Below, piece after piece: positions 1-64,000 of a stretch of 64,000 bases of DNA. Numbering within the stretch: the first letter of the stretch is position 1; every line of letters starts with the position of its first letter. Origin of the DNA: an uncultured Gammaproteobacteria bacterium (GTDB lineage: Bacteria; Patescibacteriota; Patescibacteriia; Magasanikbacterales; GWA2-37-8); assembly GCA_964540825.1 (NCBI GenBank), contig CAZINT010000002.1, forward strand, positions 477-64,476, given 5' to 3'. Position numbers and translations under genes: made by a program. The notes below the pieces were generated by a model. The model saw only the letters and a program-made list of their open reading frames with translations, was not told where the DNA came from and did not search any database.

Positions 1-24
1 CAAGGTAGCTGGGCTCAATTAGAA

Positions 25-558
25 ATGGCGTTGACACTTGTTTTTCATAAAATTCTCAGCGAGGAATTTTTGGTGGTGCGTGCCAGTCAGTTTGATGACT
101 ACATGAATGGAGTCGATTATTTAATTATTGATCGTAAAACAGGCAATGTTGCTTGTTCGTTCGATGGTTTTAATAGTAAAGCTGGCGACCTGAAATACGC
201 TGAAAAGATGTACAAAACTATTGATAAAGCCAAAAAAGGTGGTGCAAAAGTAAAGTATGGTGTTTCTTTTGAGCAAAATCAGGGCGAACGAGAAATCGTG
301 CGTAAGCCCGTGGAGCATGTTGTTCCGTTTAACGTATCACTCAGCGATGATGAACTTCAAGAATTACTGACAGGCATGGAAACGAATATTAACGGTGCAG
401 TCACACCTGTTGAAAAAAGAGTCTTTGAAACTGTTATGAAGAGTTTGGAAGAGCAGCAAAAAATGTTGGCTAAAGAAGACTTGCCAGAAGATATGAGGAC
501 TGAACTTGACGCTTTCAAAATTTCATTTGAACGAATGCAGCGGCTTGGAAAAAAATAA
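25..558 (+). CDS. hypothetical protein (177 aa), first gene of a tightly coupled pair
   Basis: Complete ORF. A 4-nt gap separates it from the next ORF. No recognisable family. Confidence 0.5.
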   Translation: MALTLVFHKILSEEFLVVRASQFDDYMNGVDYLIIDRKTGNVACSFDGFNSKAGDLKYAEKMYKTIDKAKKGGAKVKYGVSFEQNQGEREIVRKPVEHVVPFNVSLSDDELQELLTGMETNINGAVTPVEKRVFETVMKSLEEQQKMLAKEDLPEDMRTELDAFKISFERMQRLGKK

Positions 559-561
559 TGT

Positions 562-1086
562 ATGCCTAAAAAGAAAATCACTGGTACCGATCGGTTTCAA
601 GGTACATATACTTATGAACTGGTTGAACCGGTCGGAAAACACTTTGATCCTGAATTTAAGCCGGAATTAACGCCGGCCGAAATGTTAAAATTAGGCGTTT
701 TTGGCGGCGCATATTTTATCGGCGTGGATGGACTTGTTCCTGACGATCTGCCGGCAAGTTGGTTCAAAGGCGTAAAACTCTCTAAGGATGGTAAAAAACA
801 CGCCAACCTTAATTTTTTTAATGTATCCGCCAGCCAGCCCCTCAGTGTCTGGCAGGCTAAGGGCTGGATCGCGCTCTGTGACCCGCACGGCTGGTTTCAG
901 TGGTATTGTCGGTATTATCTCGGCAGACGTATTCCGGGCGAAGATAGGCGGCAAATTGGACGTTGGAAAGCCATTACCCGACATATCGGGCAGATTAAGA
1001 AATATTGCAAAAAAGGTGATTTGTCGTGCCGTCCACGGCAACGCCAAGCGCTTCTGCACTGGGCATATGATAGCCGGAAAATGTAG
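562..1086 (+). CDS. hypothetical protein (174 aa) with a Trp/Tyr/Arg-rich C-terminal motif (GWFQWYCRYYLGRR...RQIGRWK)
   Basis: ORF directly follows 25..558. Ends at a bidirectional terminator hairpin. Family not recognised. Confidence 0.55.
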   Translation: MPKKKITGTDRFQGTYTYELVEPVGKHFDPEFKPELTPAEMLKLGVFGGAYFIGVDGLVPDDLPASWFKGVKLSKDGKKHANLNFFNVSASQPLSVWQAKGWIALCDPHGWFQWYCRYYLGRRIPGEDRRQIGRWKAITRHIGQIKKYCKKGDLSCRPRQRQALLHWAYDSRKM

Positions 1087-1092
1087 CAAAAA

Positions 1093-1125
1093 ATAATCCC
1101 GACCACGCGTCGGGATTATTTTAAG
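1093..1125. terminator. bidirectional rho-independent terminator (aatcccgac-gcgtg-gtcgggatt flanked by A/T runs)
   Basis: Perfect 9-bp inverted repeat with an A-run upstream and a T-run downstream. It lies between convergent ORFs. Confidence 0.6.
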
Positions 1126-1195
1126 GCACCCGAGTTCTGCCAGGCACGAGTGCTGTGCTGACGAACTCGGGGAAGTCATCGGGTGAAAGGAGGTC

Positions 1196-1768
1196 TTATG
1201 CGGCCAAGTGCTTTACAGCCTCAGCTGATGTTAGGGTGCTTTCAGCCTTCGTGAGCGCCGGATAGCGGTAGGTGTGTATAGCCACGGGGAGCACCGAGGA
1301 GCGCCTTGGTACCTGCTTGGCGTTGACTACGCGCAGGCCGAGCCCCTGCTTACGGACCCTGACACGCATCCAGCTTTTCGCGCTGATGCTGTAGAGGTAG
1401 CATTTCCACGATTTTCGGAGATGTCTCAGGCCGATCTCGTAGACGTAGCCGTCGAGAACGAGTCGTGGTTTTATTTGGGTATTCACAGCGACCTCCACGG
1501 TGATTTGAAAAAAATCTGGACGTGGTTCCTCGATGCTTACGAAAGCGCAAGGATCAGACATGTGGCGAAGAAGCCATTTTTTAAGCTCAGCGAGCTGGAG
1601 CACAGAGTGGGCATAATGCGCTGGCTGCCTTCCACGCTGAACAAGCAGCAAAGCCCTTCGACGAATTTTTTCTTTTTTGTCTACAGCCTCCGACCAGATA
1701 AGGTGGAGTATGCTCAGGTACAGGCTCAAGAAGAGCCCGACTTCGACAGACAAATGCCGTCGCGGCAT
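1196..1768 (-). CDS. hypothetical protein (190 aa) on a GC-rich (~57%) foreign cassette
   Basis: SD AGGAGG sits 6 nt before the ATG at 1768. A TTGACA..TATACA-like promoter lies upstream on the minus strand. The terminator at 1093-1125 follows. GC is well above flanking DNA. Confidence 0.55.
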   Translation of the reverse strand: MPRRHLSVEVGLFLSLYLSILHLIWSEAVDKKEKIRRRALLLVQRGRQPAHYAHSVLQLAELKKWLLRHMSDPCAFVSIEEPRPDFFQITVEVAVNTQIKPRLVLDGYVYEIGLRHLRKSWKCYLYSISAKSWMRVRVRKQGLGLRVVNAKQVPRRSSVLPVAIHTYRYPALTKAESTLTSAEAVKHLAA

Positions 1769-1840
1769 GGGGTCCTCCTCTAGGTAAAAAAGTCCTGTAA
1801 GTGGTGTATAACGAACCAGCTCTTCTGTCAATGTAGTTTA

Positions 1841-61665: not shown

Positions 61666-61674
61666 TTATTTTTT

Positions 61675-61983
61675 ATGAGCAATGAAGCCCGTCAAATGAT
61701 ACGAAATTTTGATCGTCCACCAAGCGCTTCGCAAGAACGGCGTGAAAAAAACGGGTACTTTGAAGTAGCAGAATTACTCGCAACACATTTTGATGATAGT
61801 GTTTTTACTTTATCGGATATTCGTGAGGCGGGAATAACAAAAGAACTTACCAGATCAACTATTTCGGCTATGATAAAAGAAGGTTTTTTGGTACCAGATG
61901 GTGCTGGCTTTGCTGTTTCAGGTCCAACATATGAGCGTATTACTAAGCGTGATAGTGCCGGAAATGACGGAGAAGACACTTAA
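61675..61983 (+). CDS. hypothetical protein (102 aa) inserted between atpG and atpD
   Basis: ORF with an ATG 9 nt after the atpG stop. Not an ATP synthase subunit. No family recognised. Confidence 0.4.
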   Translation: MSNEARQMIRNFDRPPSASQERREKNGYFEVAELLATHFDDSVFTLSDIREAGITKELTRSTISAMIKEGFLVPDGAGFAVSGPTYERITKRDSAGNDGEDT

Positions 61984-62030
61984 TAAAAAGACTGTAAATC
62001 AATTTGTATAAGCAATATATTAACACTACT

Positions 62031-63398
62031 ATGAATACTGGAGAAATTAGACAAATTATCAGCGTTGTCGTTGACGTGCACTTCCCGGAAAAACTTCCTG
62101 ATTTGCAAAATGCTTTGGAGGTAGCTACGTCAAACGGTGACAAAATTATCCTCGAAGTGCAGCAACACCTTGGCGGCGGCGTGGTACGCGCTATGGCAAT
62201 GAGCACGACCGACGGCCTGGAGCGCGGTCAGAAAGTTACCGACACCGGTAGCCCGATTATGGTTCCGGTTGGAGAAACGACACTCGGTCGCATGTACAAT
62301 GTTACCGGTGATGAAATTGATAACCTTGGTGCTACCAAGTCAAAAAAGAAATACCCCATTCACCGCAAAGCACCAACGTTTATTCAGCAATCAACCAAAT
62401 CCGAAATTTTAGAAACCGGTATTAAGGTTATCGACCTTATTTGCCCGTTTCTTAAGGGTGGTAAAGTTGGTTTATTCGGTGGAGCAGGTGTCGGTAAAAC
62501 GGTTATTATTCAGGAACTTATCCGCAATATTGCTCAGGAACACGGCGGTTACTCCATGTTTGCGGGCGTTGGGGAGAGAAGCCGTGAAGGCAACGATCTT
62601 TACCGCGAAATGAAGGATTCGGGTGTACTTTCTAAAACTGCGCTTGTTTTCGGTCAGATGAACGAACCACCGGGTGCTCGTGCTCGTGTTGCCTTGACCG
62701 CACTTGCCATGGCTGAATACTTCCGTGATGAAGAAGGCCGTGATCTTCTCTTATTCATCGACAACATTTTCCGCTTTACCCAGGCCGGCTCTGAAATGTC
62801 AGCCCTCCTTGGTCGTATGCCTTCAGCCGTGGGTTATCAGCCAACCTTAGCAAGTGAAATGGGCGCGCTGCAGGAACGTATTACTTCAACTGATAAAGGT
62901 TCGATTACTTCGGTACAGGCAGTTTATGTACCTGCTGACGATCTTACTGACCCAGCTCCTGCAACCACTTTTGCTCACCTTGATTCAACTGTTACACTTA
63001 ACCGCTCGCTCGCTGAACTCGGTATTTACCCGGCTGTTGATCCTCTTGACTCAAGTTCTACTATTCTTGATCCTAATATTGTCGGCGAAGAACATTACAA
63101 GACTGCGCTTGAAGTACAGCGTGTCCTTCAGCGCTACAAAGATCTTCAGGATATTATTGCTATTCTTGGCATGGAAGAACTCAGCGACGAAGACCGCACT
63201 ACCGTTGCTCGCGCTCGCAAAATTCAGCGTTTCTTGTCTCAGCCATTCTTCGTTGGTGAAGTATTTACCGGTATTTCTGGTCAATACGTACCGCTCAAAG
63301 AAACTATCCGCGGCTTCCGCGAAATCTTGGAAGGTAAGCATGATAGTAAAAACGAACAAGCCTTCTATATGAAAGGAAATATCGATGACGTTAAATAA
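62031..63398 (+). CDS. atpD: F0F1 ATP synthase subunit beta
   Basis: Walker [16 protein letters not shown]-like region. The ATG at 62031 is preferred over the TTG at 62004. Confidence 0.95.
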
Positions 63399-63493
63399 TA
63401 TTAGTACTAAGCAGAGTAGGCAGAATAAGCGAGTTAAGCGCATCTTATTACTTACCCTGCCTACAACTTACTCTGCTTAATCTGCTCGTCTAT

Positions 63494-63907
63494 ATGAAAT
63501 TTCAAATAATCACACCCGAACGCGTTGTTTTCACTGATGAGGTTGATCAGGTCAGTTTAATGACGTCTACCGGTGAGATTACAGTTATGGCCCATCACAT
63601 TCCGCTCGTGACCACTATCCAGCCTGGGGAATTGCGCTTTAAAAAAGATGGCAAAGAGAGCGTAATTGCTGTTTCCGGCGGTTTTGCTGAAGTAAAAAAA
63701 GATAATTCTCTTGTTATTCTTGCTGACACCGCTGAACATGCTACCGAAATTGACTTAACTCGTGCCGAAGCTGCCAGAGATCGAGCACTTAAAACCATGC
63801 AAGAGCCGGTTCGACGGGATCAAGAAGAATTTGCTGCGCTTCAGGCTAATCTTGAGCGCGCTCTTAATCGCGTTAAAATAGGTAACAAATATCGTCGTTT
63901 ACCGTAA
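63494..63907 (+). CDS. atpC: F0F1 ATP synthase subunit epsilon
   Basis: Epsilon N-terminal beta-sandwich (IITPERVVF…) plus a C-terminal helical hairpin. Confidence 0.85.
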   Translation: MKFQIITPERVVFTDEVDQVSLMTSTGEITVMAHHIPLVTTIQPGELRFKKDGKESVIAVSGGFAEVKKDNSLVILADTAEHATEIDLTRAEAARDRALKTMQEPVRRDQEEFAALQANLERALNRVKIGNKYRRLP

Positions 63908-63927
63908 AAATTAGAGTATCTTTAAAA

Positions 63928-63968
63928 AATTTGGTATAGTGTACAGCTATACCAAATTTTATTTTTAG
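63928..63968 (+). terminator. rho-independent terminator after atpC (tttggtatag-…-ctataccaaa + TTTTATTTTT)
   Basis: 10-bp inverted repeat plus T-run. Confidence 0.55.
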
Positions 63969-64000
63969 CGATTGTCTCATGCGCGCCGCTAACCTTTCCC

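Follow-up and report, generated by a model that had tools for sequence, protein, structure and literature searches.

The 64,000-nt window analysed here (positions 477–64,476 of contig CAZINT010000002.1, assembly GCA_964540825.1) comes from a metagenome-assembled genome (MAG) of the patescibacterial order Magasanikbacterales and holds 69 genes, in a gene map that was built from open reading frames (ORFs) and mostly checked by Pfam, in part through the Pfam assignments attached to the gene calls of Logan contig L083. The closest relatives of its atpA product (58669–60156), up to 91% identical, are Candidatus Magasanikbacteria and other Patescibacteria MAGs. Seven ORFs of the window, F1–F7 (Table 1), are GC-rich and are each preceded by a strong Shine–Dalgarno (SD) motif, which the remaining genes lack. 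An initial annotation, made from the sequence alone, had singled them out as compositionally foreign, SD-led genes among SD-less native ones, and all seven were recovered as described, with ATG starts, on the strands stated or implied and with a strong SD.

Start sites in the window and in related loci

SD strength was calculated as the duplex energy of positions −20 to −3 with ACCUCCUUA, with −7.5 kcal/mol as the threshold for a strong SD. Energies for F1–F7, all of which start with ATG, range from −7.8 to −12.0 kcal/mol, whereas the best value among the 62 non-flagged genes is −6.4 kcal/mol and their mean is −0.6 kcal/mol. At the threshold, the split is seven of seven flagged ORFs against none of 61 others (Fisher p = 1e-9), and a GGAGG, AGGAG or GAGGA core is present in all seven, with a spacer of 4–8 nt to the ATG. 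Since 2.2% of random 18-mers from the window pass the same threshold, native starts lie at or below chance level for SD. The claim that native genes dispense with SD sequences was therefore upheld, and among the examples named for it atpG (60772), atpD (62031), metG (51653), an rsmI-like gene (50632), nrdD (21722–23845) and a crtI-like gene (27593–29071) were confirmed, all without SD; greA was not located. The starts of atpA and atpG align at residue 1 with those of their relatives, so the missing SD is not a start-calling artefact in these genes. No further SD-headed case was found among unannotated ORFs of at least 50 aa in the window. An underpowered count of SD-like motifs inside native coding sequences, meant as an indirect probe for a functional anti-SD, gave z = −1.6 for GGAGG and z = +1.4 for AGGAGG. 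The frequency of 4-nt start/stop overlaps among native genes had been overstated, as the 52 same-strand neighbour pairs comprise 3 exact 4-nt overlaps, 5 other overlaps and 14 gaps of 0–20 nt.

A second, independent feature separates the two sets of starts. Native leaders are A/U-rich and G-poor (7–16% G at positions −17 to −3), and 46 of 61 native starts carry T (U in the transcript) at position −1, against none of the seven flagged ORFs (p = 1.8e-4). The same division is seen in 63 related loci, where T(−1) precedes 75% of 1132 ordinary ORFs against 33–41% of ORFs that are SD-led or have a high GC content at third codon positions (GC3) (p = 8e-7). U(−1) together with the G-depleted leader looks like a lineage-wide Kozak-like start context, and no description of a U(−1) Kozak-like context was found in literature searches. 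The SD split and the independent U(−1) split together indicate two start grammars in one genome.

Strong SDs are almost never found before long ORFs in 80 related loci. In the set of 63, they precede 25% of GC3-high ORFs versus 3.0% of ordinary ORFs (odds ratio 10.8, p = 2e-6), the latter being close to the chance level, and the association of SD use with GC content thus reaches beyond the window. Within the window, GC3 is 0.50–0.86 in F1–F7 compared with 0.415 ± 0.06 in native genes, F4 being the mildest outlier of the seven. Both two-fold codon classes are shifted, with C-ending codons at 0.67 vs 0.37 and G-ending codons at 0.66 vs 0.27, which argues for general GC pressure and not for tRNA-matched selection. 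Arginine is raised and lysine lowered in the seven products.

Cassette architecture and coding status

Read from the sequence, each flagged ORF appears to lie in a monocistronic cassette consisting of a promoter, a leader, an SD–ATG start, a GC3-rich ORFan and an intrinsic terminator (Table 1). The promoters and terminators were taken by direct reading; a generic promoter and terminator scanner returned sites no more frequent than in shuffled sequences and missed several that are obvious by eye. In the layout so obtained, ~17 nt separate the −35 element from a −10 element of the form TAnnn[T/C], the leader measures ~15–115 nt, and the unit closes with a GC-rich hairpin followed by a T-run. A promoter and a terminator of its own around a single ORF were recognised in this way for six of the seven cassettes, the promoter of F2 being weak. 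F4 and F5 are transcribed divergently out of a common 283-nt region. On inspection, the N-terminus of F3 looks like a signal peptide with a lipobox-like VVSC. As a separate observation, GACCUCCUUUCACC, a copy of the anti-SD sequence, stands directly after the F1 stop codon in the mRNA (window 1181–1200; the other strand reads AAAGGAGGUCUUAUG).

Table 1 Cassettes F1–F7 and selected native units of the window (window positions; cassette promoters and terminators read by eye).
Feature	ORF	Whole unit	Strand	SD, spacer and start	Promoter	SD position	Product and leader	Terminator
F1	1196–1768	1088–1831	−	GAGGAGGAcccc-ATG	TTGACA-N17-TACACC, 1803–1831	AGAGGAGGA, 1773–1781	190 aa, N-terminal hydrophobic segment	hairpin and T-run, 1088–1120
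F2	11875–12255	11808–12325	+	GAAGGAGGAaaacg-ATG	weak candidate, 11808–11842	GGGAAGGAGGAA, 11859–11870	126 aa	GC hairpin and T-run, 12283–12325
F3	18889–19371	18838–19524	+	GGGAGGActatata-ATG	TTGACA at 18838, poor −10	GGGAGGA, 18873–18882	160 aa	hairpin, 19489–19524
F4	42010–42321	41915–42376	−	GTGAGGAattc-ATG	TTGACA-N17-TATGAC, 42348–42376	GTGAGGAA, 42325–42335	103 aa, GC3 0.50	41915–41971
F5	42605–43813	42456–43896	+	AAGGAGtcatcac-ATG	TTGACA-N17-TAGGAT (TG-extended), 42456–42484	AAGGAG, 42590–42599	402 aa, GC 0.65, GC3 0.86; leader ~113 nt with hairpin	43858–43896
F6	45406–46053	45349–46152	−	GCGGAGGAaccca-ATG	TTGACA-N17-TACAAC, 46124–46152	GCGGAGGAA, 46057–46067	215 aa, GC3 0.68; leader ~60 nt (−10 to ATG 70 nt)	45349–45389
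F7	60233–60646	60168–60753	−	TAAGGAGttcagc-ATG	TTGACA-N17-TATACT (TG-extended), 60725–60753	TAAGGAG, 60651–60660	137 aa, GC3 0.77; leader ~70 nt with 5′ hairpin	one-directional, 60168–60206
Native atp operon		56143–63907	+		TTGACT-N17-TAATAT, within 56143–56182		atpI-like, B, E, F, H, A, (F7), G, orf95, D, C	
Native crtI-like/phytoene synthase/polyprenyl synthase/UbiA cluster		27593–31764	+	no SD				
GC3-rich ORF	34364–35815	34364–35968	−				483 aa, GC3 0.64, no Pfam match	

The initial annotation had described TTGACA-N17-TAnnnT promoters for several of these genes and counted them among the signs of a foreign origin. The description holds for the −35 element, which is an exact TTGACA in six of the seven cassettes, and less well for the −10 element, an exact TAnnnT being restricted to F5 and F7. 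The inference of foreignness does not stand. TTGAC[ATG]-N17-TAnnnT also precedes native units at 19544, 32365, 39721, 56143, 11754 (−) and 14046 (−), 10 of the 24 TTGACA occurrences fall in intergenic DNA (12% of the window), and the promoter segments of the cassettes are themselves AT-rich and host-like. A promoter type that is common to native genes and lies in an AT-rich setting argues that sigma70-type promoters are not a foreign mark here.

As the source is a MAG and composition switches abruptly at the cassettes, assembly chimeras or contaminating reads had to be considered. Single-run Logan assemblies match the window at 100% identity over 11351–13637, 18276–19521 and 50772–64000, the junctions of F2, F3 and F7 are reproduced by independent Logan contigs (L081 spans both junctions of F2, and L082 covers F3), and a second strain shows the F1 and F7/atpG regions at 93–98% identity. 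Independent single-run contigs thus span F2, F3, F7 and F1 together with both native flanks, so the features are natural and not assembly chimeras, and the same architecture recurs in many unrelated assemblies. Chimerism is therefore refuted.

Structured non-coding RNAs or gene-calling artefacts, in which the succession of SD, ATG and ORF would be coincidental, might equally produce GC-rich islands of this kind, since in AT-rich genomes such an island is often the sign of a structured RNA. Both strands of F1, F5, F6 and F7 contain long ORFs, gene callers disagree on the strand of F7 (a 137-aa minus-strand product in the NCBI record, an antisense 163-aa ORF in the Logan call), and the whole transcripts of F7 and F4 fold with z-scores of about −4.3 against dinucleotide shuffles (F4 −4.3; F2 −1.6). 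This excess structure is tentatively attributed to untranslated region (UTR) and terminator hairpins, and over the first 270 nt the degree of structure does not exceed that of dinucleotide shuffles. Rfam returned only transfer RNA (tRNA) at E ≤ 1, with no rRNA in the window and no match for the cassettes. The explanation is largely refuted, and we regard it as highly improbable, because a strong SD 4–8 nt before the ATG in seven of seven cases is set against the 2.2% expected of random 18-mers, and because there is coding evidence for several of the cassettes. GC content by codon position follows the order GC3 > GC1 > GC2 in the SD-led frames of F2, F3, F5, F6 and F7 (GC3 ~ GC1 in F1, GC1 > GC3 in F4), whereas a different order is seen in the ORFs antisense to F5, F6 and F7, and F5 has protein homologues and a confidently predicted domain.

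The comparison of F1 with its strain variant (L086) adds to this evidence. The two copies are 93.0% identical, compared with 93.5% and 89.6% for the flanking genes, and their 40 differing sites are distributed 7/7/26 over the three codon positions, giving 19 synonymous and 14 non-synonymous codon changes. The SD and the −35 element are unchanged and the −10 region almost so. F1 is a true coding sequence, as old as its flanks.

Distribution and origin of the cassettes

Searches of Pfam, PHROGs and PADLOC yielded no family for F1–F7 apart from one marginal PHROG match of F7 (60236–60646) to "homing endonuclease" (E = 0.002), which is not trusted, intriguing as it is for a gene lodged between two conserved operon genes; the single-sequence AlphaFold model of F7 is too poor (pLDDT 36) to bear on it. 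No similarity was found among the seven themselves, and none of them is present in the loci of the 80 relatives. F5, F6 and F1 match only their own cluster or lineage among 5.8 billion proteins, while F2, F3, F4 and F7 were checked for homologues at the level of 90% clusters. No match to the cassettes was obtained in phage and plasmid collections (tblastn).

A full HMMER scan with F5 retrieved 18 remote relatives (best identity 32%), for which Pfam holds no family and which share a repeated cysteine motif, CG[LM]P..CCD...G[LI]C, located in F5 within a Cys-rich domain at residues ~46–155. The AlphaFold model of F5 reaches pLDDT >90 at residues 50–150, and no fold match for the modelled domain was found in the PDB. 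A degenerate DNA pattern for CGLP..CCD was absent from viral contigs and gave nine chance matches in metagenome contigs. Five of the 18 relatives could be placed on contigs (L098, L100, L087, L088 and L101). L098 is labelled Patescibacteria by NCBI, L100 is syntenic with L098, and L087 shares its upstream region with L098; L088 and L101 carry no assigned taxon. In each case the F5-family gene is richer in GC than its surroundings, with GC3 values of 0.84 (neighbours 0.32–0.44) in L098, 0.72 (0.23–0.47) in L100 and 0.92 (0.58–0.71) in L101, and of 0.91 and 0.90 in L087 and L088, whose flanks have an overall GC of 0.40 and 0.50, respectively. In four contigs, F5-family GC3 exceeds that of the neighbours by 0.2–0.5, in members as little as 17–36% identical to F5, and all five have a TTGACA promoter, an SD-like motif of varying strength and a leader, which is long except in L101.

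The F5-family gene lies just downstream of an apparent 5S rRNA gene in three of these contigs (L098:1–2500, L100:500–4400, L087:1–1963). At this site in L098 and L100 the flanking proteins are 74–91% identical and the upstream region is conserved, while the F5-family proteins are only 26% identical; the promoter and 5′UTR are conserved, and a 3′UTR motif seen by eye in both contigs reads CATGTT.ATCCTGTCGTGAGA. As far as these sequences indicate, the 5S-proximal gene is a hypervariable coding sequence between conserved untranslated regions. L100 also carries, at 679–2538, a gene for the pseudouridine synthase TruD and an ORF of 217 aa. Each has an SD-like motif (−7.3 and −9.7 kcal/mol) and an elevated GC3; the 2-kb segment that holds them is missing in L087 between the matching 5S-proximal region and the F5-family promoter, and it looks like a genuine import.

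Cassettes of the same type were found in eight relatives (L006, L008, L017, L018, L019, L024, L029 and L046) and include a divergent pair like F4/F5; several of their products look secreted or membrane-bound by inspection. A GC-rich cluster of three cassettes is common to L017 (5449–7227) and L019 (5481–7231), genomes ~11% apart in nucleotides. Between the L017 and L019 cassettes, non-synonymous codon differences outnumber synonymous ones (16 vs 4 and 26 vs 5) and the changes cluster at the N-termini, which suggests diversifying or mosaic evolution. F7 lies antisense between atpA (58669–60156) and atpG (60772–61665) in a spacer of 615 nt that measures 9–62 nt in the five closest relatives (L001, L002, L003, L005 and L020), so that F7 is best seen as an insertion between two genes which these relatives have side by side. 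In other relatives, this spot is occupied by small ORFs of low GC that lie on the same strand and lack an SD.

These data allow the proposal of the initial annotation to be weighed, namely that all seven were acquired recently from GC-rich donors that use SDs, for example host bacteria, with donor codons and ribosome-binding sites retained. GC1, GC3 and the Arg/Lys ratio deviate in the manner of genes from GC-rich genomes, with G- and C-ending codons both raised; F7 is missing at the atpA–atpG junction of the five closest relatives; F4–F6 cluster 2.6–6.6 kb from a tRNA gene; the heterogeneous GC3 suggests several sources; the L100 segment absent from L087 is a comparable case; and horizontal gene transfer (HGT) into Patescibacteria is documented (PMC12455944). 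Set against this, no candidate donor emerged for F5, F6 or F1 from the protein searches and no phage or plasmid matched, the promoters are of host type in AT-rich DNA, and no integrase, repeat or target duplication was seen at the borders, which were read directly with no dedicated repeat search. The located F5 relatives lie on Patescibacteria-like contigs and combine the same high GC3 with their own promoter, and the retention of both in AT-richer hosts is not predicted by simple recent import. F1, for its part, has diverged between strains like its flanks. Recent acquisition from SD-using donors thus gained no positive support and is contradicted for F5 by its family and for F1 by its flank-like divergence; we consider it possible but rather doubtful for the set as a whole. 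The link between SD and composition is not explained by simple recent import, and fresh import from ordinary SD-using donors fits the data less well. Compositional HGT detectors would nevertheless tag such cassettes as "recent imports", contrary to the F5 and F1 evidence.

The same features could also belong to ordinary native genes that are very highly expressed, with signals and GC3 shaped by selection for maximal expression. Promoters close to consensus, TG-extended in F5 and F7 and also present in relatives, 5′ hairpins, strong terminators and the secreted or membrane-bound appearance of several members in relatives would suit this explanation. It is weakened by the ATP synthase genes and by the genes for S6, S18, SSB and EF-P of L101, for which high expression is to be expected and which have neither SD nor a clear GC3 excess, and by the general GC pressure evident in G-ending Lys, Gln and Glu codons, which rise as much as C-ending ones. 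Most cassettes are, moreover, strain- or species-restricted ORFans, and we judge selection for expression improbable as the cause.

A possible second initiation channel and its genomic setting

The interpretation we prefer, and in which we place about as much belief as doubt, is that F1–F7 represent a resident, moron-like class of accessory genes that depends on SD pairing in an otherwise SD-less Patescibacteria lineage. Ordinary genes would initiate from A/U-rich, G-poor leaders with U(−1), many of them coupled to an upstream gene and some probably leaderless. The cassettes would be autonomous units, each with a host-type sigma70 promoter, a leader of 15–115 nt (often with a 5′ hairpin), a strong SD and a terminator. 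The 20 nt upstream of the start have a GC content of 0.50 in F1–F7 vs 0.31 in native genes, and start regions (−30 to +240) fold at −85.5 vs −62.8 kcal/mol (p = 6e-5). Being GC-rich and hence more stably folded, the cassette starts would be poor substrates for the default unstructured-leader pathway, and would instead attract the 30S subunit through base-pairing to a canonical CCUCC anti-SD, resulting in a second, SD-dependent initiation channel for the cassette class only. The suggestion of the initial annotation that GC-rich start regions need an SD in this host is plausible in this respect, as it fits the richer GC and stabler folding of the F1–F7 starts. High GC3 combined with SD behaves as a persistent trait and does not resemble the unameliorated residue of a very recent import from ordinary SD-using bacteria. 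Individual cassettes are gained and lost, as the F7 insertion indicates, with a Patescibacteria-associated gene pool as the likely source.

Several observations weigh against this interpretation. The folding excess of the cassette starts is explained by composition alone, as z-scores against dinucleotide shuffles show no difference from native genes (5′ 270 nt). The GC enrichment spans all codon positions, C- and G-ending codons and the Arg/Lys ratio, a profile that matches what is expected of genes from a GC-rich genome, and the wide GC3 spread among the seven (0.50–0.86) is what multiple donors would give. The trait has been seen to persist only in a single family (F5) and a single pair of strains (F1), and the SD-like motif is weak in two of the five located F5-family members (L100, −6.4 kcal/mol; L101, −4.5 kcal/mol). 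In addition, no clear SD precedes the ATG of the GC3-rich, native-looking ORF at 34364–35815, which is served by its own TTGACT promoter and a ~120-nt leader. An alternative start, GGAGG-5-TTG, lies 12 nt inside the frame, and by inspection the product of this ORF looks like a polytopic membrane protein. The ORF may be an eighth cassette member with a different start or a true exception. The statement that every compositionally odd gene has an SD, correct for the seven flagged ORFs, is thereby slightly too strong.

The anti-SD itself presents a further difficulty. The window contains no 16S rRNA gene and hence offers no sight of the host's anti-SD, and about half of Parcubacteria 16S rRNA genes lack CCUCCU (Tsurumaki et al. 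2022; PMC9297842). The 16S rRNA 3′ end of a more distant Parcubacteria relative, L038, reads ...GATCACACAAUUU, without CCUCC. In the same contig (L038:4031–4110) the 16S 3′ end can be followed as ...GGAAGCUGUCGAUAGAUCACACAAUUUUU, in which CCUCC is replaced, in agreement with PMC9297842. That the SDs are canonical and well spaced, and that relatives have them in the same class of genes, is an indirect argument for the presence of an anti-SD in this organism.

Similar gene arrangements are known elsewhere. Phage morons, in the concept of Hendrix and Juhala, are autonomous promoter–ORF–terminator units of deviant base composition inserted between conserved genes. The cassettes resemble them in that each comprises one gene under a sigma70-type promoter of its own, closed by an intrinsic terminator, and has a composition unlike that of its neighbours, and F7 in particular lies between adjacent genes of a conserved operon and is present or missing among close relatives. 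They differ in residing on a cellular chromosome with housekeeping flanks and no prophage context, the sole PHROG match being that of F7, and the moron concept does not include a link to SD use in an SD-less host. With genomic islets they share atypical GC and GC3, ORFan content, a patchy distribution and partial clustering near a tRNA gene (F4–F6). Unlike islets, they revealed on inspection neither mobility genes nor repeats at their borders, homologues in a donor were not found, their promoters are of host type, and members of the F5 family keep the atypical composition in distant hosts.

Bacteroidia offer the closest parallel in translation, with SD-blind initiation and few SD-bearing genes, such as rpsU of Flavobacterium johnsoniae (Jha et al. 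2021, PMC7797042; McNutt et al. 2023, PMC9976891; PMC13000453). As in that group, SDs are nearly lacking genome-wide (here none of 61 in the window and 3% in 63 loci), leader composition and a Kozak-like context mark the starts, and a tiny minority of genes with a strong SD implies a separate, potentially switchable initiation channel. The differences lie in the phylum, Patescibacteria; in the native context, which is U(−1) and a G-poor leader and not upstream adenines; and in the SD-bearing genes, which are GC-rich ORFan cassettes and not rpsU or prfB. The anti-SD of Bacteroidia is sequestered by bS21, bS18 and bS6; the likeness here is drawn from start sites, the window contains no rpsU gene, and bS21 is often missing in Parcubacteria (PMC9297842). 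The Parcubacteria of Tsurumaki et al. 2022 (PMC9297842) belong to the same superphylum and likewise generally dispense with SD, but that paper describes no SD-bearing subsets, and canonical SDs on a defined gene class argue for a usable anti-SD in the present lineage. No description of SD-bearing, GC-rich cassettes in Patescibacteria was found in literature searches.

A more far-reaching version, which we put forward tentatively and think unlikely, would have a dedicated SD-dependent second channel serve a pool of GC3-rich, autonomously transcribed and fast-turning-over ORFans, some of them secreted or membrane-looking, possibly under gating by the anti-SD. Such gating could, by analogy with the control of rpsU by bS21 in Flavobacteria, operate through the availability of the 16S rRNA anti-SD, and high GC3 in AT-richer genomes would be due to selection or to GC-biased conversion linked to recombination and would not stem from recent import. 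In its extreme form, the "universal" bacterial signals of the cassettes (sigma70 promoter, SD, ATG, terminator and GC-rich codons) would reflect their expression after transfer into a host bacterium.

If the split is functional, one small genome runs two initiation grammars, U(−1) with a G-poor leader and SD, for different gene classes. If true, this would offer a way into specialised translation in the candidate phyla radiation, a group already noted for unusual ribosomes, and it raises the question of what keeps GC3 high in cassette genes. The combined signature of own promoter, SD, high GC3 and terminator could serve to find accessory, possibly host-interaction genes of these uncultured episymbionts. 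Gene callers trained on the bulk of a genome mis-call the cassettes: F7 was assigned to the opposite, incorrect strand, and the start of F1 was placed within the F1 promoter.

The native units of the window contrast with the cassettes in their starts. No SD is present at any start of the atp operon, and most of its genes have U at −1. The −10 element of its promoter ends 8 nt before the first ATG, so that the first gene of the operon (ATPase_gene1/AtpI-like) is probably leaderless or nearly so. The crtI-like cluster, likewise without SD, includes 4-nt ATGA overlaps at 29879 and 30937.

Two further arrangements were observed beside the tRNA gene at 39356–39427. On the minus strand, a TTGACA-N17-TATACT promoter and an ORF of ~80 aa (39433–39721) directly precede the tRNA gene, and the two genes appear to form one transcription unit. 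The adjoining stretch from 36000 to 39300 is atypical in the opposite direction to the cassettes, with low GC (0.37–0.39; gene GC3 0.27–0.36) and no SD, and holds an IMP-cyclohydrolase-like gene and two ORFs without Pfam match. Within the atp operon, a 95–102-aa ORF of very low GC3 (0.22) lies at 61675–61983 between atpG and atpD, and different, unrelated low-GC, same-strand small ORFs occupy the atpA–atpG and atpG–atpD spacers of L006–L017, L060, L062 and L064; the operon seems to be a hot spot for lineage-specific small genes.

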